A stretch of 63,981 bases of DNA, the filler included, from Chrysochromulina tobinii (taxonomy: Eukaryota): NCBI GenBank assembly GCA_001275005.1. It is 11 parts of 11 records of this genome, joined end to end, with 100 filler letters (N's around TTAATTAATTAA, not from the genome) between each part and the next. Parts side by side here need not be neighbours in the genome. Positions count along the whole stretch, not along the records: positions 1 to 4,008 come from JWZX01000231.1; 10 more parts are not named here. One strand, written 5' to 3'. Numbering within the stretch: position 1 is the stretch's first letter; each line of letters opens with the position of its first letter. A program made the translations under genes and the position numbers. Positions 1 through 63,981 of this stretch are shown here, in pieces. The notes beneath the pieces were generated by a model. It worked only from the letters and a program-made list of their open reading frames with translations. It ran no database searches and was not told the origin of the DNA.

Positions 1-12
1 CTGCCGAGCAAG

Positions 13-3000
13 ATGAGGAAGCAGCAGACCGACGGCACCAGGCTCGAGATCATCAACCAGCTCGCGCAGGTCGACCCCAACATCTGCGAGCAGTATGAGC
101 TCCGGATGACCGCGTTGGGCACCAGCGCGCCCTCCAACATGGACGATGCCGTCGCGCTCATCGAGGAAATCCTCCGCACGAGAGCAGCGCGCGCCAAGCT
201 CGCCGCCCTTTCCGGCGGCGCCAAGCAGCTCGGCCTCGTCGCCGGCGACGCGACCGTCGCCGATCGCGACCCGACCAAGAACAAGCCCGGCGACGAGAAG
301 AAGACCAAGAAGACCAGGCCGCCCCGCCGCCCCGACGGCAGCAAGAAGGGCGAGCTCCTCAAGTGGGTCGAGGGCATGGACGTGTGCAAGTGCGGCGGCA
401 AGCACCTCTACCGCGATTGCACCGACCCAAAGACGAAAGCCTGGTTCGATGCCTCCAAGGCCAAGAGGGACGCCGAGAAGGCCAAGACTGCCCTGGCAGC
501 CGACGTCGCGCCGGCGGCCGCACCAGCATCGGCTCTCGTGTCCGCTGGCGGAGGGGATTACGCCACGACCGCGGTGACCATCTCCGGTGATCACACGATC
601 GACGAGCGCGCCCTCCTCGCCCAACTTTCCGGCTTCTTCAACTCCGCCGCGCCCTCGAAGGTCGTGCACTGGAGCGAGACCGCGAAGGCCGCGCACTCCG
701 CCAACGTTGCTAAGACCAAGGTCATTGATGGCGTCGTGCAGCTCGTCGAGCCATCCCCTGACGAGCTCTCCCTAGCTACCGCTCTTGGGATCGTCACCGC
801 CGACTTTGATCCGAGCAACACCCGTTGCCCCGACTTCGTGCCCGGGTGCTCGGGCACCTGCGCCCGTCAGTACGAGACCGATACCGCCGACAGCGCGAGC
901 TCCGACGATGAACCTGATCCGGCCCCGCGCTGCGAGGAGTGCGCCGACAACCCCGACGAGCGCCTTTTCTCGCGGGTGCTCAAATTCCTGCCGCATTTCT
1001 GGGCGTGCATCGTCACAGGCATGCTCCTCGGGCTGGACCCAATGGATCGAGAGCTACTCGACGACGACGTTCAGCTCATGTTCGTGATCCATGATTGCGT
1101 CGAGGTCAAGCGCGATCACTCGGCCCACACCATCCAGGTACGGTGGCGGCGTCTCAAGGCCCGCCGGGCAGGTGCCTGCCCCCCGCCGCCCACCGAGGGG
1201 GCACAAAAGGGGTCGCCCGCCGACGAAACCGCCGAGTCCGCCGAACAACCCGCCGACGATCCCGCCGCCGAACCCGCCGACCCTTCGCGCGACGATGCGA
1301 CGCGGGCGGCGATGGCTCCGCTACTCATTGCCACGCGTATGGCAGCCGTCCTCGACGCTCGTCGCCGTCAGCGCCTGGCAGCTGGGCCGCCGGCCATCCA
1401 GTGGCTCGCCGCCTCGGCCATCGGCATTATCCTCCTTGCGCTGGTCGCAGGGACGCTCGCTGCGCCCACCTCGGCCTCCATCCATGCCATCGACGGCCCC
1501 ATAGCGGACGGTGACCCTGGCAGCGACGCTGCCCTCCGCTCCGACGCCCTGTCCTCGGTCGCTCATCGGATCTCCGAGGGGCTCATCGCTCGCGCCGCGT
1601 ACCATGTCCTGTTGGCCTTCGTCACCACCGTCTTTACCGTCGCAGTGCTCTGGCCTTCAGCCTTCGCAGCCGTCGCCAGACGTCAGCCCGCAGATGTTAC
1701 TCGAGGCCTTGCGTACGTGATTGCCACACCGATGATCGGCCTCATCAACGGAGCTTGCTCCCTCGGACCCGCCACCGGCCGATCGACGGCCGCCATCTGG
1801 ATCGCTCGGAGCTCGTCGTCCGCGGCCTCGGCCCTCACACGCCTTCGGCGCGCGGCGCCTATCTTTGTCGCCTTGGCCCTTCTCGCATCAGCTCTCCTCA
1901 TCGGTCCAGCTGCCTCTGACTACCACAGCGCCGTTGCCGTCGCCCATGGCACGAACGTCACGCGCATCGACCTGCCATACTACGGCAGATGGATGCCGCA
2001 GGGCGCTACTGCTGACGAGGCCCTCCGGCAGTCCTCCCGGGACCCAGCCGCCCTCGAGGCCCTCGTGGCCGGCGCCGCCAGCAAGCATCCGGCGTCGCCG
2101 ATCGGCATCCTCAAGCTCCACCCCGACTCCGGCTGCACCGGCAGTAACACGCCTCACCTTCACCTGCTCGCCAACCGTCGCCCCTGCGACGAGATCTACT
2201 CGCAAGCGAACGGCAACATCTCAAGGTGCGAGGCCATCGGCGACCTTCCCGTGATCGTGCGCGACAAGCAGGGCGCCACCGTTCAGCTCACCTTCACCAA
2301 CGTGCGCTGCGTGCCCGACTTCAAGTTCTCGCTCCTCTCGGTCAAGCAGCTGTGGAACGAGCAGGGCATCGACGCGCGCTTCTGCGACATCAACGCGCTC
2401 GTCCTCCCGAACCAGTCGGGCCTCATCCCCTACGACCCGGCGCGGCCCCTGTCCACCATCAACGCGGTGCCCTGCGCCCATGTCGCCGCCGCGGCGCACT
2501 GTGCGCCGCCCCCTGCCCCTCAGACGGCACTCGCGTCACTCGGCTTCCACCAGGTCGGCTCGACCTCTCACCTCGCCAAGCTCTCCGGGGTGCAGATCGG
2601 CGCGCTGATGCATCGGCGCAATCACGGCGGTATCCACAAGATCAAGGCGTGCGTGCACGCGTCCAAGGACGGCCCCAAGAACCTCGGCGCCGCGGTTCAG
2701 CCCACGTGCCTCGACTGCGCGGCCACTCGCATCAAGGCCGCCGCGCACTCCGGTCGACGCGAGCCTTGCACCGAGCCCGGCACCCTGCACATCGACCTCA
2801 AGGAGTTCGCGCGCTCGTACGGTGGCTACCAGTACGCGCTCATCGCCGTCGACGAACACACTCGCTACATCTTCACGCAGTGCTTGCGCCACAAGTCGGA
2901 GGCGCTCGACGCCGTCAAGCGCGTCGTGGCCGAGTTCAACGCGATCGTCGGTACCCGCCTCGACGCCGACGGCAAGCCGCTCCCTCGCCCCACCGTCCGC

Positions 3001-3817
3001 ACGATCATGAGCGACCGCGAGGGCAAGCTCATCTCGAACGCGTTCAACGAGTTTCGGGCCGACGCGAGCCTCCACCACTACACGAGCGCCCCACACGACC
3101 ACGACCTCAACGGCATCGCCGAGCGGGCCATCGGAGCTGTGAGCGAGACGGCCGCGGCGCTGCTGCACTCCGCCAACGCGACCGTCCTCGAGTGGCCGTG
3201 GCTCATCCGCTACGCTGTGGACTGGCACAACAGCCTGATCGGCGACACCGGCACCTCGTCGTCCGACCCGCAGATCTCGCCCTTCCAGCGCCTCACTCAC
3301 AAGCTGCCCGCCATCATGGACCTCGCCCGCTACGGCTGCCGCGCCGTCGTGCTCAAGCCGCCCAACCAGCAGAACAAGACTGCGCTCGACTCGCGCGGAT
3401 GGGTGGGCACCTTCTGTGGCCGCTCGGTCAACTCGCCCGGCTGTTGGGACGTCAACTGCAACGGGACCATCGTCAGCAGCTCCAGCGTCCAAGTCGACGA
3501 GGAGCACATGCCGCGCCTTGGCTCTCAGGCGCACCAGCCTCTGCCGCCCACGGCCCCGGCAGCCCGGGCCTCGCCCCCAGACTCCGTGCCGCATCTCGAC
3601 AGCGATCGGCCCGTCGCTCCGGCAGCCCCGTCGGCCGCCCCGATCAACGCGTCCGTGCACCACGAACGGCCCGCGCGCAAGGCACTCTCGCTGCTCAACC
3701 TCTTCAGTGGTCCTTACCATCGAACGGACGGCCTCGCGGCCGCCCTCTCTGCCCATGGCTGGACCCACGTCACTCAGATCGACAATGACGCCGAAGTAGG
3801 GGGGGGCTGGCAACACG
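13..3817 (+). CDS. Copia gag-pol polyprotein (partial); meaningful frame ends at ~3817
   Basis: ORF 13..4056. Zinc knuckle at ~385-420, protease DSG at 2125-2133, integrase core at ~2782-3240. After 3817 this frame reads as Arg-rich off-frame sequence. Confidence 0.9.
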
Positions 3818-4008
3818 TTCTCAGTCTCACGCTTCTTCGACGCCACCGTCGACGGCCACGACTCGGGTCCTCCTGTCGTGCGCGACCACGATCACCCCGA
3901 CGGCGTCCCCGAGCTCGACCCCAAGCACGTCAAGGAGCTCAAAACGTCCAACCTCCTGCTCGAGCGCACCGTCGAGCTCGCGCTCGCCGCACATCGATCT
4001 CCGAGCAA
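3685..4008 (+). pseudogene. C5-cytosine DNA methyltransferase-like domain fused downstream of integrase; internally deleted and frameshifted
   Basis: Frame 1 gives the motif-I-like LSLLNLFSGPYHRTDGLAAALSAHGWTHVTQIDND. Frame 2 from 3812 gives NTFSVSRF...GPPVVRD..HPDG...SNLLLERTVELALAAHRS, which resembles sequence following the PPC motif IV. The contig ends before the expected ENP motif. Confidence 0.7.
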
Positions 4009-4108
4009 NNNNNNNNNNNNNNNNNNNNNNNNNNNNNNNNNNNNNNNNNNNNTTAATTAATTAANNNNNNNNNNNNNNNNNNNNNNNNNNNNNNNNNNNN
4101 NNNNNNNN
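4009..4108. other. Artificial contig spacer (Ns plus TTAATTAATTAA six-frame stop). Also at 13412-13511, 16002-16101, 28879-28978, 37653-37752, 49088-49187, 56059-56158, 59298-59397, 61320-61419 and 62651-62750
   Basis: The identical 100-nt N/TTAATTAATTAA/N block occurs 10 times. Confidence 0.99.
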
Positions 4109-4250
4109 GGATACGTATCCTGATAACAAACCCCCCCCAAACTCGATAACAAACCCCCCCTGACCCGGTTGCGCCGAGATCTGCCCTCCCGATCGCTCGC
4201 GCCAGCGATGGGCACCAAAGGCGGCGGAAAGGCGACCGCCATTTTGAATC

Positions 4251-4295: not shown

Positions 4296-4426
4296 AAATG
4301 GACGCACTATGAATACAGTATGCCGTACACGCGCATTCCAAACCGCCTAAACGGCACGCAATCAGGCATGGCGAAAGTTGTTCGGATCCGCCGGCAGTAG
4401 CTTCGAGCCTTAGCGGGCGAATCTCT

Positions 4427-5467
4427 TTGACGGGGCAGTGCATCACCACGGAGCAAGCTTCAAAGCCGTGGGTGAAGAAAAATTATACGTACTATGACAC
4501 CCTTTTCACTTCGTGGCGCGGCAATTGGCTGGAGCTTGAGGACGACCTTGCGAATCGACGGGAGCAGATCATTGTGGAGCAGACGAATCTTGGTTTGATG
4601 TCGGCGCTTCTCCTCACCATCGCAATTCCTTACATGATGGGTGTTCAAGACTTGAATTTCGACTCGACGGTCAACATGCTGACTCGCGAGAGCGAGGACC
4701 CGGCAAGCGGTGAGGACATGGCGCGCGCGCACCGTGATGTTCTATCCATCGTGTCGTTCCTCTCCTTTGTTGGGTTCATGCTGTCAACCACCCACTCCGT
4801 CTTGACCATGCTCTTCCTGTCCCAACTGACTGGAGTCGTGGAGCCGCGCATCTTTCAAGAGCGCCTCGGCTTTATCAATTCGGCCGGGATCCTCCTTTTC
4901 ATGTTCGGAGTCCTTTTCCTTATGGTGTTAGTCTTTTATCATTTCATCATCTTCGCCTCCTACGTCGCAACCATACTGGTGGGCGTGATCTCGATTGGAA
5001 TCATCGTGTGCGCCTACGTGTTTGGCGTGGCGACGAGGCAGCAGAATGTCCTCTTCAACATCAAGCGGCTGTCGTATACGACAGCGCCAACCACGCTGGA
5101 CCACAAACAGCTCGACGGGTACGCCGTCGAATACTGCGAAAAACCGGATCTCGGCCCTCAGACGATGACAGCTGCAAACCTGGAGGAGTTCATTCGCGAC
5201 CGCCTTGCGAACGACAAGCGCAAGGATAAAAGTGTTTCACGCCCGTCCGAGATTATGTTCTCCGAGGTGACTACTCGGATGATTGAGATGTATGCGACAA
5301 AGATCGTGGATGCCTGCGCTCTACAGGCCATCAAGGACAGCCCGCTCCTAGAGGCGTTCTCTAATGATGATGATAAGCCAAGTGCCATGCTGGACAAGCT
5401 GCTTCGCGCCGCCGAGGATGGTGACAAACTGTGCAACTTGATCACAAAAGGCTCGACAGTGGCGTAG
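4427..5467 (+). CDS. Multi-pass membrane protein of unknown function (true ATG uncertain)
   Basis: 346-aa ORF with about 4 hydrophobic segments (LGLMSALLLTIAI; IVSFLSFVGFML; GILLFMFGVLFLMVLVFYHFIIF; TILVGVISIGIIVCAYVF). Confidence 0.7.
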   Translation: MTGQCITTEQASKPWVKKNYTYYDTLFTSWRGNWLELEDDLANRREQIIVEQTNLGLMSALLLTIAIPYMMGVQDLNFDSTVNMLTRESEDPASGEDMARAHRDVLSIVSFLSFVGFMLSTTHSVLTMLFLSQLTGVVEPRIFQERLGFINSAGILLFMFGVLFLMVLVFYHFIIFASYVATILVGVISIGIIVCAYVFGVATRQQNVLFNIKRLSYTTAPTTLDHKQLDGYAVEYCEKPDLGPQTMTAANLEEFIRDRLANDKRKDKSVSRPSEIMFSEVTTRMIEMYATKIVDACALQAIKDSPLLEAFSNDDDKPSAMLDKLLRAAEDGDKLCNLITKGSTVA

Positions 5468-5502
5468 GCGCGTAGCAAGCAGGGTTTCTGATGAAAACAG
5501 AC

Positions 5503-5670
5503 ATCGTGAAGGCCTGCGCTCTACAGGCCATCAAGGAGAGCCCGCTCCTAAGGTCGCTCTCCGATGATGGGCCAAGTACCACGCTGGACAAGCTGGACAA
5601 GCTGCTTGCCGCCGCCAAGGATGGTGACAAACCGTGCAACTTGATCACGAAAGGCTCGATATTGGCGTAG
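5503..5670 (+). repeat. Degenerate tandem duplicate of the 3' end of the 4427-5467 gene
   Basis: 5503-5670 aligns to 5303-5467 (GCCTGCGCTCTACAGGCCATCAAGGA...GGCGTAG) with substitutions and indels. Confidence 0.9.
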
Positions 5671-5892
5671 ATAGTGTCGCGAGACAAGTGGGGAAACTCA
5701 CCTGATCTCGACTGAGGTCCAGCAAGACCTCCCATATGAGTAGGTCCAGTGTGGGCTTAGGTCAGGGGAGGGGTCGGTACATCTCTTAAGCGAAGTAGAT
5801 GCATGAATTGACGACCGTGGAGTCTTACCATGTTTGGTCAGACTGCCATACCATGTATGGTCACTCTGTTGTGATACCCTTCTTTGGGTTGT

Positions 5893-6149
5893 GTCGGAAA
5901 AGCTAGTGCAAGCGGTCTTCGCCCACTTCTTCCCAGACTCGGTCGCCTGTCAGGGGATCTGAGGAGCTACTTTCGAACTCTCGGTCTCGCAACAAGTGGA
6001 GCGCTATAATGGAGCGCTCTACCGAGCGATACTTTACGACGTTCGGCCCAATGAGTTTTACAGGTCGGAAAAGCTAGTGCAAGCGGTCTTCGCCCACTTC
6101 TTCCCTCTCGATCGCCTGTGGGGGATCTGAGGAGCTACTTTCGAACTCT
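5893..6149. repeat. Direct repeat of about 88 nt (5893-5981 and 6064-6149)
   Basis: GTCGGAAAAGCTAGTGCAAGCGGTCTTCGCCCACTTCTTCCC...GGGGATCTGAGGAGCTACTTTCGAACTCT occurs twice. Confidence 0.9.
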
Positions 6150-6761
6150 TGCAACACACTCAGCTTCCGTGCGAGAGATGCATGCAAAAAAGCACGATGT
6201 CGTTCAAGGCCACAGTCAGTCAGTCAACAGTTACTCATGTGTCCTACAGCTACAACACGAGCAAGCGTGCGTACACCGGACCATTCATTCGGACCCCTTG
6301 TTTCAGTCTCTGTGGAGAGCGACTGAAACACACGCATCTGTGCTGGAATACAATGTACGACTTTCTGTGCCTTCCCAGCTATAGCACACTACTTTGCGTA
6401 GTTTTCTTGGATACTAGATGTTGCCAAGACGATGACCGTCTTGGCTCTGATTAGGCTCAGATATTGTGTTGTTGTGAACAACGTTTGTCATATCACACAG
6501 TGTGAATTCCTCGAAATCGTAGAAGTAAACGTCGTAACTATTCTCCGACCACGACAAGCAACGCGAAGAGAACAAGCAGGTTTCCATACCCGTGTCCCGC
6601 TGTGTCACCATGCCGTCCCATGTCGCATGCCGCCATACTCTGTGACGTCGTCACATCCCCTTCAATTTCCCCCACCGCAATTCAGGGGGTCCCGCCAATC
6701 GGTAGGTAGCTTGGTCAGTTACAAATCTCTCTCTACACCAGAGTTCCGACAGCTGCGTCCC

Positions 6762-9700
6762 TCAGAGCCGCTTGCGCAGGAACTCCTCGTAGGCGCCACC
6801 AAGCAGTCGGTGCACGTCACGCCGGATGTCGCCCCTGGAGACTCGCCAGCCGCGCTCGAGCAGCTCGCCATACCTGCGATCGCAACCACGAGCGCAACCG
6901 GCAGAGGGGCCATGAGCGGGGCCGTCAGAGGCCCGTAATGAGGACGATGAGGTGTCCTTTGGTGCCATCATGTGCCATCATGGGCCCTCCGGCGCGCACT
7001 TGGCCGTGAGTAGCTCGGTGAGTAGGTCGCGCCCGCGCCGCCACTTGTGGATGAGCTGGTCGTGCAGCTTGGCCGACGAGGCTGTGAATGTGAACTGGGT
7101 GCCAAGAACCTCGAGCCGAATCGCCGACGACGCCCTCACGAGCGAGGGGAGGGCCGCGTGCCACCACGAGCCCCACACGTGCACGTTGGGGAATCGCGAC
7201 GCGAGGACGGCAAGCTCATGCTGGTCCGCATCGCTCAGTACGGTCACCAAGAACTGATGAGGGACACAATCAGCGACCATCAGTGGCCATCAAGAGGCAA
7301 TCAGAAGTCACCAAAATTGCGCCAAGGGTCGGGCGAAGCACTCGGAGACACTCAGTGTGGCACAATCAGTGCTCATCAGTCGCACTCAGGCTTGCCCTCT
7401 CACCTTGGTCTTCGGCAATCAGTGCTCATCAGTCGCACTCAGGCTTGCCCTCTCACCTTGGTCTTCGGCAATCAGTGCTCATCAGTCGCACTCAGGCTTG
7501 CCCTCTCACCTTGGTCTTCGGGTGCGCGGCACAGAGCTGCCCAAGCGACTCGAGGCGCGCGGACCCCAACCCATCACCGGCTAGCCGGAGGGTCGGGTTC
7601 ATGCCGCGCCGCGTGCCCATGCGCAGCAGCAACGGCAGCCCGTGCTTGCGGCAGAGGGGCAGCAGCACCGCATCGAGGATGAGCGCCACCGTGGGTGCCA
7701 CCTCACCGAGCGCCGTATTTGGCACCGTCACGTGCGGTGTGGCGTATGCGAAGGTATGCGGTGTGGAGCAACTCAGATACTCTGGGCGGAGAGTCACGAT
7801 GCACCGCTCGAGGAGCACGCTGAGGCCCTCGAGGGTGAGCGTCGTGTCGGTCGCCTCGAGGGTACGCAGGACCGACGGCCACCCGTGTGGCTCGAGGAGT
7901 GCGTCAAGCTCAAGCGCGGCCCGATATCGCGGCGGCCGAGGCGGAGGGGCTAGGCACGCCTGCAGCTGACGAGACGAGAAGAAGGGCGCATGCGACGTGA
8001 CCACATATTTGAGCTTCGCGAGCCGGAGAACTTTCTCATTAAATTTGGCGCCATCCTGCGAGGCGTACCTGATGAAGGAGGCCATCCATGGCCATCAGTG
8101 GCCATCCGTGGCCATCCGTGGCCATCAGAGGCCATCAGAGGCTATTTGTGGTACACACGGGTGTCATGAGGAGGAATCAGGGGTCCTCAGCGGCCATCAG
8201 CGGTCATCAGTAGGGGCGGACCACTTTCGGATCTCGGATAGGGAACGGCGCTCGAGAGCCTCCGTCAGCCCGAGGGCCTCAAGCGTACTGACGACGCCGG
8301 CGCACGCCTCTGAGAGCGGCGATCGCTCGACAAATAGAGCTTGCCAAATGCGCTCAGCTTGCGTCACCTGCGGCAGGGCTGCGAACGCGTCGGGCGCATC
8401 GTCGGCGATCGAGAGGTACTGCGCGACGAGGTCCGGCGAGCACGCAAGGGACTCATCTCCGAAACCAGCAGTGAGCAGCTTGTCCACGCCGTACCTGATG
8501 AGGGACGCGATCAGCGACCATCAGTGGCCAGCATGAGGCAATCAGAGGTCATAAGGGGGGCTCTTTGGCGTACAGCATGAGCTCCGGCCCGTACTCGGCG
8601 GCGAAGCAGTGCGCGTGCACATCAATCGCGTCACATGCCGCCACCTCCTGACCCACTGCCTCGCGTAGCTTCGACTTCGTCAGATTCAGTGGACGGCGCG
8701 GATCGAGCATCGTGAGTACATGAAGGGCCGGCTCACCGATTAGCATACGCCGGAGCAGCTGTGCGACGCGTTGGCTCAGCTGCGCGTGCGCCGTGTCGGT
8801 GCGCGGCGAGAAGCCTTCCACAGTCGAGAGCACCTTCATGCATGGAGGGAGGCACTCAGCATGCAATGAGGGAGGCACTCAGCCTTCCACAGTCGAGAGC
8901 ACCTGCTCTGTGATCGAGCCGACAGCAACAGCGGAGGTACCGCCTGTTCGTCCGAGTGGCCGGAGCAATAGCGGCACCAGGCCATCGCCATCACAGAACT
9001 CATAAGTGCCTGCCTCGAGGTCGACCCTCAGGCCTGGCGTGTACTCAAATCGCGCGGGAGTGGCCTTAGGCGGCACAGCGTCCGGAGGCGGCGGTGGTGG
9101 CTCGTCGGTGGGGCAGGGCTGTGCAAGCGCGGGCGAGTCGTCGAGATTGCCCACGAAGACAGGCCTTCCCTCCCCGAGCCTCGTCTGCTCTCCCATGGGA
9201 GTGAGGAAGCGCAGCATGGCGGCGATCGAGAATGCCATGAAGTCGGACGGAGCTTCGGCAGCCAGCAGGGTGGCCTTGATGGAGGGTAGCAGACGGATCC
9301 CAAGCTTCTGCATCGCGTTCTGCGAGACGAAGAAGCAGCAGAGCCCAAAGTGGCGGTGCTGCAGCCGCGTCATCCACTCGGTGTAGACGGGCGTGACGAC
9401 CGCACGCTCGCACCCGAGCTCCGACGTCATGTGCACCACGTCGCGCTCGAAGAGCTGCTCGAGGTAAGGCAATATTGGCGAGTTGGTCTGTGCGCACAGG
9501 TCTGTGGTTGGTTGCCGACCCAGTGCCATGGCATAGACCATCGCGCTGTGCAGGCCATTTGCCACACGGAGCTTGAGCTGGATATCTAGAGCCAGCTGGT
9601 TGGGCTGCGTGCGTGCCGCGAGTCCGGGCACCGTCGAAAGGCCCGCCGGCAGCACCCCCTGCAGGTCTTCTATGACAATCGCCTTGTAGGGGAGCGGCTC

Positions 9701-10363: not shown

Positions 10364-10861
10364 TTTGCGTGAGCCTCGCGTGGCGCGCGCGCGCGCGGCG
10401 TGTCCTGTGCGCGCGGCTGTGCGCACGCCTCGGCCTCCCGCTCACGAGCAACCTCGTCGAGGTGACCGAGCTCGACCTCTCGGGCCCCGGCCGCCTCATC
10501 GCCGTCGCGGTCTCGTCACTAGAGGGATCAGACGAAACCCAAAGCGTCGGTCGGCACGGCGGCGGCGGTTAGAGAGATTGAGGTTGCACCCCAAAGGCTG
10601 AAAGGTGTTTTAAGGGTAACATGCTTCTGGATACTCGCTAACGATTCGAGAATCCTGGTACATTGTACCGGGTACCGGCCGCGTCTAAGAGGAGGGGGGG
10701 GATTGGGGGAGAGAAAGAGGGGGGCAAAGACTGGGCAACGACACCTTGGCTGAGGTGCTCGTGTGCAGGGTTGTATGCCGAGATGGCAATCAACGTGAAC
10801 GTGAAACGTGTTGAGGTTTGTAGTGGCCGTCCTCGCGGGGAGCGTTTTGCGAGCTCGCACG

Positions 10862-11473
10862 ATGAGTCGCGTGGGGCAGGCGGCAGCGAAGCCTGCGAGT
10901 GCGGTCACGCAGGCGGCCGGGGCGAATGGCACGGTGCTGCGCTACGGCGATCGCGTGCAGCGCCGGTCCGACCATGACTACATGTGGTACGTTGGAACTG
11001 TGGACAAGCTCTTCAACGACGGCGACGTAGCCGTCGCGCTTGACTCGGGCGAGTACTGGCAGGGCGAGGGCGAGGACGTGCACCCGCTGCCGCCCGACCA
11101 TCCCGGCCAGGAGAGCGCTATGGAGATGGGACTCCCGTCTCCGGACGGCCTCGGCACACAGTCGCCAGTGCAGGAGTACCGACCACGCAAGGAAAGCAGA
11201 GCTCGGTTGTCTAGTCAGGGTGCGTCGATGACAATAGATTCGCCCATGGCAGCGGACATCACGTTTGCGGCGCCTCATGGTAGCGCCATGGCCGAAATGC
11301 CCGCATCAGTTGGTGTCCACTCAGGCGGCTCCGCTCCTTTTCAGCCAGCGTTGGGCGGCTTCGTTGTAAGGTCCACCAGCTCTCCAGCACCTCCTGCGGG
11401 CGCAGGCGGGCCGCCGTTCAGCTTTGGAGCGGGAGCGCCCGCGGGTGGATTCACCTTTGGAGCCGAGGGTTAG
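10862..11473 (+). CDS. Hypothetical protein with a Tudor/SH3-like N-terminal barrel and an FxFG-rich tail
   Basis: LRYGDRVQ...WYVGTVDKLFNDGDVAVALDSGE; C-terminal PFSFGAG...GFTFGAEG. Confidence 0.5.
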   Translation: MSRVGQAAAKPASAVTQAAGANGTVLRYGDRVQRRSDHDYMWYVGTVDKLFNDGDVAVALDSGEYWQGEGEDVHPLPPDHPGQESAMEMGLPSPDGLGTQSPVQEYRPRKESRARLSSQGASMTIDSPMAADITFAAPHGSAMAEMPASVGVHSGGSAPFQPALGGFVVRSTSSPAPPAGAGGPPFSFGAGAPAGGFTFGAEG

Positions 11474-11981
11474 GCGGCGTGTACAGCCTTTAGACGCACT
11501 GACCAGTGTGTACTTTCTTAGCGCAAGCGGCCGGACCAGGCGGTCCAGGGCGGAGCCGGAGGGACGCGGCGGGCGCGGGGCCGCCGGGGGCCTGTGGGCA
11601 GTGCTGGAGTCCTGGAGCGCGCCAAGCGGGCCTCTTGCAAGTGACTCGTGGTAATAAACGAGGGTAATAAACGAGACTGTGTACGACCACTCAGTGTACA
11701 CTCAATGCGCGCGCGCGTGGAGTAGTATTGCCGCGGAGCGCGGAGGTGCAGTGGTTAGGCAAGCTCTCGCCCCTGCCGAGCCCGCGCGCGCAGGGCGCGA
11801 GAGGCTTGAACGACTGCTCCTCCCGCTCCTCCGCAGCTGCAGCAAAGAGGCAGGCGCCGCCGTCAGGAGGGCGAAGCTGCGTGCGAGTAGGACACTATCC
11901 CGATCTCCACCGCGAGCTCAACGGCAGCCCTCGCCTCCCCCCGCCGATCGGATCGGGGGGGAGGGAAGGGGGGGGTCCTGA

Positions 11982-12892
11982 CTATTGCTCCAGCGCAGAG
12001 GCGGCTAGGCGCTCATACTCGGCCTGGCGCCGGCTATTCATCTGTCGCAGCTCGTCCATGTTGGGTGGGTCCCAGCACGGAAGAGCTAGGAACTCTGCGA
12101 GCGGCACGCGTCCCCTGCCATGGGGATCGGCAAGCTTCACAAAGTCAGAGAGCTCCTTGGCCGACAGTGGGTTGTCGCCCATCCCCCCCAAGAACGAGCG
12201 CAGCTTGTTCACGTCCACCATTTCGCTGGACGTCGTAAATATCGCCGTCGCATGCTCAATGTCCATGCGGCCCTGTGCATGGGGGGCAGCGGCGGTGGCC
12301 GCGGCCAAAGCGCCACAGTGAGTGAGCCTGAGCCTCGACATGTGGGCGCAAGGAGCGGGGACAGCGCAAGGAGCACGCCCAGGGACGACGGGCTCGTGCC
12401 GCAGTGGTGGGCGCGCACCTCCTGCCCCCCCAACCATCGATGGGCCATCAGCGCGGAGAATTCGCTCCATTCAATGACCCCGTTGCCGTCGACATCGAGC
12501 GCCTGCATGATTGCTCTCACCTGTTCCGGGTTGGGAAACATCCCCAGCTGTCTAAGGACCGCTGTTATCTCTTTGCTGTCACTGTGCACACAAACACGAA
12601 CGGCAACCCAAGCGGGCTTGAGGGCATGCGGGCGAGTGGGGCCGGTGAGGGAACGCGGCAGTTGGGCGGCGTACATCGCGCCGCTGCCGTCGACATCAAA
12701 CTGCCGAAAAGCGGAAGCGAGCTCCTCCTGCTGAGCCGGCGAGAGTAGCTCTACTAGCATCATGCCATTCTCCACAAGCTCTGAGTTTCTTGTTGCCCTC
12801 GTCCTACTTTCTGTCGAGCTGGTAGGAGCCTGATCTTCTGGTGCTGGCGCGACCTGCCTCCACGGCGCACAGCAGCAATCTAGCAACCCCAT
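11982..12892 (-). CDS. Calmodulin/centrin-like EF-hand protein (spliced, 2 introns) with a possible N-terminal acylation motif
   Basis: AFRQFDVDGSGA(I)DSKE, LDVDGNGVIEWSEF, ADPHGRGRVPLAEF. The protein starts MGLLDCCC. Confidence 0.85.
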
Positions 12893-59050: not shown

Positions 59051-59464
59051 AGTCGAGAGCCATGCAACGAGGATTGCCATTCTCCGGATCATCGATGAGA
59101 CCCATGCACACCGGTGGGGATGACAGAGCTTGGAGAGCAAGAGCTTGGAGAGCAGCTCGTCGAGGCGGCCCAGATCCTTCTCTACCGAAGAGGGACTACC
59201 CCAAGCTGCTGGCTTCAATCGACCCGAAGTCGAGCGCCAAATGCAGGCAAGAGGATCATCCAACCCCAGATCATCGATGAGACCCATGCACACCGGTNNN
59301 NNNNNNNNNNNNNNNNNNNNNNNNNNNNNNNNNNNNNNNNNTTAATTAATTAANNNNNNNNNNNNNNNNNNNNNNNNNNNNNNNNNNNNNNNNNNNNGGG
59401 CGTTGACTTCGACCAGACCTGGTCTTCGGCCCTCCGCTACTCTTCAGCGCGCGCGCTCTTTGCA

Positions 59465-60011
59465 GAGTGGACGTCGCTGCGTACATGAGGCAGCCGAGGC
59501 GCTCTTGCAGAGGGCGGATGAGCTCCGGATAGCTCGCCGGGGGAAGAGCGAGCGCGTCGGCGATATGCTTGAGGAAGTCGGACGAGTAGGGCAGCGAGCC
59601 GCGCTGCACCTTCTCAATCGGTCCGTGGGGGAGAAAACGCTCGATGAGCTTCTTCACGTAGGACGTCTGGTGCAGCTTGATAGCGCCATCGGGGAGGTAG
59701 TCTACCTCGATGCCGAGGAGATCTTCCATGGGGCCCTCGTCGGTGATATCCCAGTCGCGAGTGAGAGAGTCCATGAATGTGTTGTAGGCGCAGCCAGAGG
59801 GACCGCGGCCTTCGGCGTTGAGTACGGCTGAGTGCACAATCTGGAGGTTGTCGACGTACACGCCGATGGTAATGATTTCGCCGTCGGGGTGCGTGCGTGT
59901 GAACACGCAGGGGTCGGAGTCGTCGAGGGCGGCGAAGCCTTGCTCGACCAGCCACGCAAATAGCATGCGCTGAAGGCGGCGGCCTGCCTGCTGGATTCCA
60001 TATATGGGTTT
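59465..60011 (-). mobile_element. Copia reverse transcriptase, C-terminal half (inverted relative to the N-terminal half)
   Basis: KPIYGIQQAGR, DPCVF, IGVYVDNL, DEGPMEDLLGIEV, LHQTSYVKKLIERF, LGCLMYAATST. Confidence 0.92.
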
Positions 60012-60747
60012 GTATGCGCACCTGTATTCACACCTCGACGTCATGGAGGCCGCGGTCGCTCAGACGCTCTTAGCCGCTGCTGCCGACGCGCCCTCGCCGA
60101 GAACAGCGACTCTCGACCTGGTGCCCATCTCACCGTGGTCCACTCTCGACGGTAGCTGCGTCCCTCGCAAATCGATGCGGCTTCCCGGCGGCGGCCGCGC
60201 GCTTCCCGTGTTTGTTGCGCTCACGCAAGGCGATGACATTTCCTCGCCCGACGTTCTCGCCAATCTCGCTCTTCTCGGCCAAGCCCTTCGCGCAGATTCT
60301 CCTGGCGCGCCCTCGACTCATCGCGAGGCCGTCCAGGCCGGTCAAATCTGGCTAGACGCCGAGGCCAAGGAGCTCAGCAACCATGCGCGGAACGCCTCGT
60401 GGACTTCGATCCCGCGCAGCGAGGTTCCGAACGATCGTCGCATCCACAAACTGATTTGGGTGTACAAGCTCAAGCGCGACGGCTCTGCCAAGGCGCGCTT
60501 ATGCGTGCAAGGCAACACACTGCAGCCGGGCGTTGACTTCGACCAGACCTGGTCTTCGGCCCTCCGCTACTCTTCAGCGCGCGCGCTCTTTGCCTACGCC
60601 GCGCGCAAAGGTTGCCGAGTGCGCAGTGTGGATCTGGTTGCCGCTTATCTTCAGGGCCGCTTCGTCGACGGTGAGGTCGTCTACTGCTACCTCCCGACCG
60701 GCTACCCCGAACTCGACTCGAATGGCCAGCCCTTGATCGCCCGCGTC
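60012..60747 (+). mobile_element. Copia reverse transcriptase (RVT_2), N-terminal half and upstream linker
   Basis: PSTHREA...W..AE.KEL, WVYKLKRDGSAKARLCVQG, GVDFDQT, VDLVAAYLQG, VYCYLPTGY. Confidence 0.92.
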
Positions 60748-61560
60748 GGGAGCGCGTCGCGAGTGCCGGCCATCTCGAGGCGAAGGGCGGCGCCAGGGGG
60801 CAGGGGTGGAAGAGGCTCAGAGAGATTGGATGCAACGAAGGGAGTGTATGATGGGCCGAATTCGTGCGTGCCCCCAGGCGAGTATTCGGCGGGCGAGGGA
60901 GTGGTCGGATGCGACGGTGGGGGCAAGGGGGCCGGGGGGGGCGAGGGCGTCTCCTCGGGTACGGGTGCAAGCGTCCTGGCGACGTTGGGGTCCGCGCCGA
61001 CAGCGTCAGCCCACTTGGGGCCCCACTCGCGCTTTCGGGGCTGTTTCTTGAAGTAATCGACGGGCACTCGAGTGCGTACGGCGCGCTGAGGGGCGTCGGG
61101 CGAGAGTGCGGACGTGTCGAGCGACGGGAAGGTGATGGGGGAGGCGCGAGGGTCGCGGAGGCCAGTGAAGAGAGAAGGCGGAGATGAGGGCGACAGCTCC
61201 CCCCCGTCGGAGATGGAAGGCCCTTGGGGCTTTGGCGATGCCCCCCCGTCGACTGAGGTCGGCGCCCCCCTGTGAGCGAAGGGCGGCCGCGAGGAGGGCG
61301 GGAAGGGTGGGAGAGGCTGNNNNNNNNNNNNNNNNNNNNNNNNNNNNNNNNNNNNNNNNNNNNTTAATTAATTAANNNNNNNNNNNNNNNNNNNNNNNNN
61401 NNNNNNNNNNNNNNNNNNNGAGCCTTGCTGTTCGCTTCATTGTTCGCAACCGAATGGTCGAAGCGCTCTGCCAGGGACTCGGTGGCATGCGAGCTGGAGC
61501 CAGCTTTTGAGGAGCCCGCCATCGCACACGAAAGCGAAATCTGCGAAAACTTTTCTCGCC

Positions 61561-62484: not shown

Positions 62485-62750
62485 TGGGCAGTCGAGCAAG
62501 GAGACGAGCGCCGAGCTGTCGAGCTCCAAACCCAAGGCGGTTGCTGCTGACGCTCACCAAGGTGTGGTGAAGGGCGCCGCTATCGCAGCCGCCGCTCCCG
62601 ACGACGCCGCTCGTCTAGAAGCCGCTGCTGGCTATGCCCGCACTATGCACNNNNNNNNNNNNNNNNNNNNNNNNNNNNNNNNNNNNNNNNNNNNTTAATT
62701 AATTAANNNNNNNNNNNNNNNNNNNNNNNNNNNNNNNNNNNNNNNNNNNN

Positions 62751-63981
62751 TGCCGCCGAAGTGGTGCAGCAGTGCGATGTTGCCTTCGCTGTTGCATACT
62801 TTCGGCACGGTGGAAGCGCGAACGGCGTCGACGACAGCCTTCTCGGCCTTGTCGACCCAGTTGATGTGAAGCGACGTGCCGTGGAGAGCGTAGATTTTGA
62901 GCGACTCCGGGTTCGCCCATCGGCAGATCATTTGGATGACGTCGTCGGAGCAGCCTGCGGCTTTCAGGGCAGTGGCGAGGCCGCTGCGTAGCGAGTGCCA
63001 TGAGTAGCACGACGCTACTTGTTCTCCGTAGAGGCGCACGAGGGCTGCGTGCAAGAGCGTGTCCATGACGCTGTGCGTGTAGGGCAGGCCGTGCTCGTCT
63101 GCGAATAGCGGGGTTAGCTGGCGGCTGAAGCCGTGCACCGGGCGAGCGAGCTCGATTTGTTGAATGATGTAGCCTGCGCTGTTTGGGTCGAAGGAGAAGG
63201 CGATGGCGGACGCGAAGGGCGAGTGGATTTCGCCGAATTGGTCCGTCTTCGAGCGTGGCGGCGCAACGAGGATGGTGTCGCCGGGCCTGAGCGCGGCGAG
63301 TTGGGCCGCGGACGGGTCGCAAACTGGCACGCCCGCGATGATGTAAGATACGTCGTGCCGTGTGACGTAGCACACTTCTCCTGAGGGGTGAGCGACGAAC
63401 TCGGCCAGGCGGTGGCCCGTGCGCCAGCCAAGAGCGAGCATGCCACGGAAGGCCCAGCCGATGACGCTGGCAGGGTCGTAGCTACGTGCGCCGAGGCGGT
63501 CCTTGGGGTGCTTGAGCAGATCTTGGACCATGGCGAAGCGAAAAGGCTCGCGTCGTTGAGGCATTAGGGCGTGCGCGCCGTACACCGTGACGAAGGCCCG
63601 CAATAGTCCGTGCAGCTCGCCTTGCACTACCTTGGCGGGCGGAAGGATGAGCTTCCATTCGCGAAAGATGCGGATGATGGAGAGCACGTAAGCGAAGGCG
63701 CTGCGAGGAGAGGCCCACTCGCGTCCTCGTTTGCCCTTCATTTTCGGGTAGACGTAGAGCAGAAAGGTAGCCAGCAACGTGCCTACCTCGCTCGCATGGT
63801 TCTGGACTTGCTCGGAGGACAAGAGCGGGTCGAAACCGACCAAGGCTGCATATTGCTCCCATTGCGCCCAGGCGGCCTCGTTCTTGCGTCGAGTGCCGTG
63901 TGACGCGCCGAAGTCGGCGAGGTCGCTAGCGTGCTTGAGCAGCTCCCCGAGCTGCTCCACGCTGTGGCTGGAACCGAAGCC
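62751..63981 (-). mobile_element. Tyrosine recombinase of a DIRS/Ngaro-type retrotransposon (or Crypton-like element), partial
   Basis: An N-terminal SAM-like binding domain (AWAQWEQY...AYVLSI) and the catalytic set R (GHRLAE), K (SKTDQ), HxxR (HSLRSG), W (CRW), Y (LKIY). Confidence 0.92.

Follow-up and report, generated by a model that had tools for sequence, protein, structure and literature searches.

Retrotransposons that carry their own cytosine methyltransferase (MTase) were described by de Mendoza et al. (2018; PMC5890265), whose carriers are LINE, DIRS and Gypsy elements; for the Copia elements of Symbiodinium, the paper reports that none has a DNMT domain. In yeast assays, the SymbioDIRS-Dnmt3 domain on its own methylates CG, and of four retrotransposon DNMT types two, the LINE and the Gypsy type, showed no activity (PMC5890265). 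A captured domain for cytosine methylation is also present in the Pol of CopiaMBD (PMC6673714), where, as far as the accessible text goes, it is a reader (MBD) of host origin found in arthropods, whereas the domain reported here is of the writer type. The sequence-only reading of our DNA had named the same three carrier classes, correctly, and knew of no Copia case. In the full-text literature searched, subscription journals aside, a Copia element with an MTase domain or with CG...CG ends is indeed undescribed, but one sentence in Sarre 2025, citing de Mendoza et al. 2018, puts DNMT3 in 'LTR Copia and DIRS'. Within the accessible part of that source this is apparently the Gypsy case, although real Copia sequences could lie behind it.

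We analysed a stretch of 63,981 nucleotides, filler included, from the haptophyte Chrysochromulina tobinii (the window). It opens with a dead copy of a Copia family in which a conserved, predicted C5-cytosine MTase domain lies between integrase (IN) and reverse transcriptase (RT). As a predicted cytosine-methyltransferase fold in this slot suggests that the element methylates its own new DNA copies, we lean towards methylation of its own cDNA as the function. The family resembles SymbioDIRS-Dnmt3, SymbioLINE-Dnmt and KnitGypsy-Dnmt3, so far as the published text we could consult describes them, in having a C5-MTase in a retrotransposon frame (Pol in DIRS and Gypsy), in RT-like purifying selection and in congruent RT and DNMT trees. 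It differs from them in its Copia host, in the slot between the IN SH3-like domain and RT, in its ENP and QKYT motifs and in its CG...CG ends. Furthermore, the present domain is invisible to PF00145, the profile with which the count in PMC5890265 was made.

Frame 1 of the window is free of stops from base 1 and, by translation and Pfam, encodes the protease region (Pol_BBD), rve and SH3 followed by a Pro-rich linker, so that the earlier claim of a polyprotein running past integrase into an MTase is borne out. Beyond the linker it reads LLNLFSGP (FSG at 3703-3711) and IDND (3778-3789), and the same domain then continues in frame 2 as TFSVSR...GPPVVR...PDG...SNLLLERTVELA up to the run of N at 4009. 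The change of frame noted earlier is real; it is not a one-nucleotide slip but a deletion, as 92 nt present in the intact locus L001 are absent from the window between the 8-nt near-repeats GCAACACG/GCAGCACG at 3810-3817. About 30 codons are thereby gone, including motif III and the catalytic PC of motif IV. In RNA run X19, contigs include the deleted bases, to which loose ends in X5 and X7 also correspond. The ENP of motif VI, RT and RNase H are absent from the window element and are located past the gap. The remnant in frame 2 is 98% identical to P0003 and P0004, the latter being the nearest named protein and itself labelled Chrysochromulina tobinii. Taken alone, the window's MTase fragments have no methyltransferase match in Pfam, and their identity as an MTase rests on homologues. 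The coordinates of the features are collected in Table 1; at least one membrane-helix-like window of the kind listed there occurs in 16 of 31 long homologues.

Table 1. Features of the Copia copy at the start of the window.
Feature	Position	Strand	Evidence
Copia gag-pol frame into MTase N-terminus, out of frame at deletion	1..3816	+	84% identity over 896 aa to intact P0033
Three hydrophobic stretches resembling membrane helices, gag-protease interval	1390..1905	+	hydropathy windows at aa 464, 532, 617
Protease / Pol beta-barrel domain	2125..2367	+	PF22936, E 1.5e-7, aa 709-789
Integrase core	2779..3099	+	PF00665, E 4.2e-7, aa 927-1033; score slightly below Pfam cut-off
Integrase C-terminal SH3-like domain	3298..3513	+	PF25597, E 1.3e-5, aa 1100-1171; score slightly below Pfam cut-off
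Pro/Ala-rich linker	3514..3684	+	translation
MTase N-terminus, motif I (LFSG) and motif II (IDND)	3685..3817	+	
Junction of 92-nt deletion, 8-nt near-repeat, frame shifted	3810..3817	+	
MTase remnant, interval from motif IV to motif VI, frame 2	3818..4008	+	ends at gap 7 codons short of ENP
Assembly gap	4009..4108	.	

A complete version of this copy is found in locus L006, whose positions 4347-8354 are identical to window 1-4008 (4008/4008 nt). It is bounded by two identical 313-bp LTRs (3300-3612 and 12442-12754) and has a TGGTA primer site, a G-rich tract and a 5-bp target duplication, GACCG, the duplication having been checked at this one locus. RT lies in a shifted frame in L006. As the catalytic PC is deleted, RT is out of frame and RNase H is interrupted, the window copy is catalytically dead. 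What interrupts the RNase H region in L006 is an inserted segment of about 1.17 kb (~10741-11915) bounded by terminal inverted repeats, probably a non-autonomous DNA transposon. A chimeric join of linker and MTase, a concern raised by the sequence-only reading, can be ruled out, since single contigs span the join in all four runs examined and L006 is identical over window 1-4008. From position 4109 onward, the window matches neither the element nor the 3' flank of L006 (12755-16637), which indicates that either the scaffold join across the gap lacks support or this deleted variant is present at two loci. Contig depth summed over the LTR far exceeds that of the flank, a ratio that is not a copy number, and the window holds no tRNA that could be compared with the primer site.

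Other parts of the window hold further frames. A second Copia fragment on the minus strand (59405-61319), with linker and RT in a broken frame, shares 73% identity with L011 along 551 nt, and gaps cut it before the MTase position. At 62750-63981 (minus strand) lies a frame that by eye resembles a tyrosine recombinase, as in DIRS-type retrotransposons, and at 4313-5670 (plus strand) a membrane-protein-like frame of 384 aa, with a second copy of its C-terminal part immediately downstream.

All protein searches for the family used the MTase as query, and the sample holds no MTase-less sister clade. The search with the intact domain gave 178 proteins of 789-2512 aa, and 120 of these together with the first search made up 125 homologues. 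Among the matches listed, 75 of the 125 have IN, SH3, MTase, RT and RNase H in one frame, with PC and ENP between IN and RT as the earlier note had anticipated; the remaining 50 are partial with the order unchanged, and a different order occurs in none of the 125. Forty metagenome loci comprise 32 close and eight distant relatives. L001 has a single 2606-aa frame between LTRs with the order PR-IN-RT-RH, and its RT is of the Copia type (PF07727, E 1e-28); P0033 shows this Pol order as well. The family thus shows the Pol order, the Copia RT, and the LTRs, primer site, polypurine tract and target duplication of Ty1/Copia elements. The proposal of a Copia family with an MTase between IN and RT therefore holds for the architecture, but not for its restriction to one alga, as the family is far wider. 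Bacterial origin, as given by the MAG labels on P0011, P0023 and L041-L044, was not accepted, because L041 and L042 share about 89% identity with the element in the window; most simply, they would be mis-binned algal DNA.

Conservation was counted over the 112 domains that reach 240 aa, with 13 below that length set aside. The catalytic Cys of motif IV and the Glu of motif VI are present in 112/112 and the Pro of motif IV in 109; the Phe and Gly of motif I are kept in 111 and 112 domains, and the Asp of motif II in 109. In P0011 numbering, C437, E512, P514, G373, K567, C559, C591, H593 and H598 are invariant. A chance motif match is ruled out by these residues and by the shared architecture of the homologues. 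The dN/dS of the MTase is 0.054-0.156 in seven of eight pairs, the other pair being saturated, which is similar to the values for IN, RT and RNase H; the domain is under purifying selection. In trees of 64 complete proteins, 18 of 19 supported MTase splits recur in the RT tree with no conflict, and this agreement indicates that the domain is old and inherited together with the element. RNA-derived contigs, from the poly-A run X19 and as MMETSP transcript P0144, hold an intact domain, although expression is not thereby proven.

The placement of the domain directly behind the integrase SH3 in most copies raises the question of whether it transfers methyl groups efficiently at all. It might instead read DNA and tether the integrase, steering insertion as chromodomains or the MBD of CopiaMBD would; targeting domains have been proposed for CopiaMBD and chromoviruses (PMC6673714, in the part available), and motifs I and VIII of our domain deviate. 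We regard such a module as unlikely, given that all 112 domains keep the catalytic Cys and Glu and that the same domain stands N-terminally in DIRS-like RT frames, where a DDE integrase is absent.

What the domain is follows mainly from predicted structure. Two AlphaFold models (pLDDT 86 and 91) show the C5-MTase fold with motifs in the linear order I to X, and C5-MTases fill all 44 rows listed by Foldseek against the PDB. In VIA, the first model matches DNMT3B (Z 12.2, rmsd 3.9, 210 residues aligned) with C5-MTases in all of the first 12 rows; the second reaches Z 11.3 (rmsd 3.8, 200 aligned) with C5-MTases in the first 16. The C5-MTase assignment of the sequence-only reading is thus supported by the models. 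DNMT3 is at the top in VIA, with other families within 1 Z in the second model, and short-chain dehydrogenases score Z 9.3-9.8, hence a modest Z gap to the C5-MTases. Small viral C5-MTases, 210-220 aa long, fit the models best (TM by target 0.76 and 0.66); to this compact group belong Tetraselmis virus 1 A0A2P0VN45, A0A0A0RJX0 and PHROG 757. These compact enzymes are stand-alone genes, share 14-15% identity with the domain and match it weakly by profile; PHROG 757, a DNA methyltransferase, matches four of 23 family members (best E 7e-5). The nearest Atlas cluster bearing a Pfam label carries PF00145 (score 0.87), which is a lead only.

Sequence profiles do not recover the domain. Detection with PF00145 and HMMER, as earlier suggested, failed for the window fragments and for all 32 homologous domains (E up to 1); NCBIfam MTase models matched none of 23, PDB sequence and profile searches with the domain gave no match, and tblastn of the domain against a phage collection found none. 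Motif I keeps FSG and continues with PY (FSGPY) in place of the xG of FxGxG. The canonical motif VIII of C5-MTases is QxRxR; aligned by eye, it is QKYT in 106/112 of our domains. A Cys2His2 metal site is predicted in the small domain. We file the domain in the C5-MTase superfamily, as a divergent clade that lies outside the canonical DNMT families.

The same structural comparisons bear on the substrate. DNMT2 structures tie with DNA enzymes (6fdf, Z 10.6-10.8; 3qv2, Z 10.4-10.8), so a DNMT2-like m5C methyltransferase acting on packaged genomic RNA or on the primer tRNA would also fit the fold, and de Mendoza et al. consider RNA methylation as a possibility for SymbioLINE-Dnmt (PMC5890265, in the text available). 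This we hold to be improbable, as the closest structures belong to viral proteins with a DNA cytosine methyltransferase annotation and the DNMT2 family gives no sequence match. The altered motif I may mean another cofactor, and a C5-carboxymethyltransferase, 8yf3, is among the fold matches (Z 9.6-9.8). The enzyme could then add another C5 group such as carboxymethyl, or act in trans, on the DNA of the host or of invading viruses, to the benefit of the host; an antiviral role has been proposed for retrotransposon accessory domains (PMC6338049, in the part consulted). That the domain is inherited with RT throughout a diverse family fits a function at the level of the element, and we consider a host-level role very unlikely.

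The clade extends well beyond Copia. A profile search of 1.84 billion representatives (50% identity) gave 10,428 matches at E up to 0.001, of which the best 150 were taken. P0183 (2679 aa) is a Gypsy-type polyprotein (RVT_1, RNase H, integrase) with an N-terminal MTase nested among the Copia domains; it is a lone sequence, and an assembly chimera is possible. DIRS-like frames with a member of this MTase clade ahead of an RVT_1-type or RT-like domain are L033-L040, P0255, P0259, P0265 and P0288; the label DIRS-like comes from RVT_1 matches or from RT and RNase H motifs seen by eye, not from a recombinase. PF00145 misses the MTase in these frames too. From this wider distribution, the domain has moved between retrotransposon classes. 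FastTree (96 rows sampled) unites the Copia and Gypsy domains at 99 and leaves the DIRS-like ones outside, whereas in IQ-TREE (36 rows) the long outgroup falls inside the LTR set at 80-89. Neither MTase nor RT has relatives in viral contigs or among phage records.

TG...CA termini are typical of Ty1/Copia elements, with published exceptions, and are not a defining trait. The LTRs of this family begin with CGT and end with CG. After the Pol frame, 19 of 36 loci scanned have a G-run, which continues with CGT in 19/19, and CG precedes all 12 of the TGGTA[GT]CGG primer sites found in the 36 loci; many of these loci are near-copies, and the left ends span about ten subfamilies. Contigs depart from the LTR exactly at base 3612, and the 5-bp duplication of L006 flanks CG...CG. 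Since the CG persists next to flanks that differ among L006, L002/L003, L007 and L030 and contigs exit at 3612, it belongs to the integrated end. Copia elements with termini other than TG...CA are known from plants and diatoms (10.1101/137141; PMC2806351). In the accessible text, however, the non-canonical ends of 50 plant genomes always have T as first base (LTR_retriever preprint, 10.1101/137141), whereas this family has C, and the diatom families CoDi3.2/4.2/4.3 are described only as having termini without TG/CA (PMC2806351). The CG ends thus depart from a strong integrase-substrate rule, and LTR finders set to TG...CA would overlook them.

These ends admit a more specific role, in which the enzyme mainly methylates the terminal CG of the linear cDNA, the methyl group standing in for that of the TG thymine, so that integrase can use the end. 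The uniform CGT starts, the CG before every primer site, and the duplication and contig exits at that base are all consistent with it, but the DIRS-like carriers lack such ends and we think it quite improbable. In its broadest form, a viral-type, Pfam-invisible MTase clade would have spread through algal Copia, Gypsy and DIRS-like elements and here would methylate the CG at the cDNA end, 5-methylcytosine replacing the thymine of TG...CA and licensing integration; this we rate just as improbable.

Under the reading that we favour, methylation of the element's own cDNA, the domain would be made within Gag-Pol and enter the virus-like particle, where the protease may free it or leave it on the integrase, as expected from Copia biology. 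It would meet the cDNA in the particle and methylate cytosines before integration. By analogy with SymbioDIRS-Dnmt3 the target would be CG, and in CG-methylated algal genomes the mark may make the incoming copy resemble host DNA; broad CG methylation is reported for haptophytes (PMC12344493, in the part seen). The sequences bear no footprint that would corroborate this: the elements show no CpG depletion (o/e 1.02-1.30; host DNA 1.07-1.14), which would also suit an enzyme acting on RNA. Transitions at CG are only slightly raised (164/1224 vs 140/1358, p 0.017), in pairs that are non-independent and with codon context uncontrolled.

Counts based on Pfam miss a very large clade of 10,428 representatives. 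Transposon-borne cytosine methyltransferases now extend to Copia, whose particles and linear cDNA are open to assay; with intact copies in a single frame available, the role of such enzymes becomes testable.
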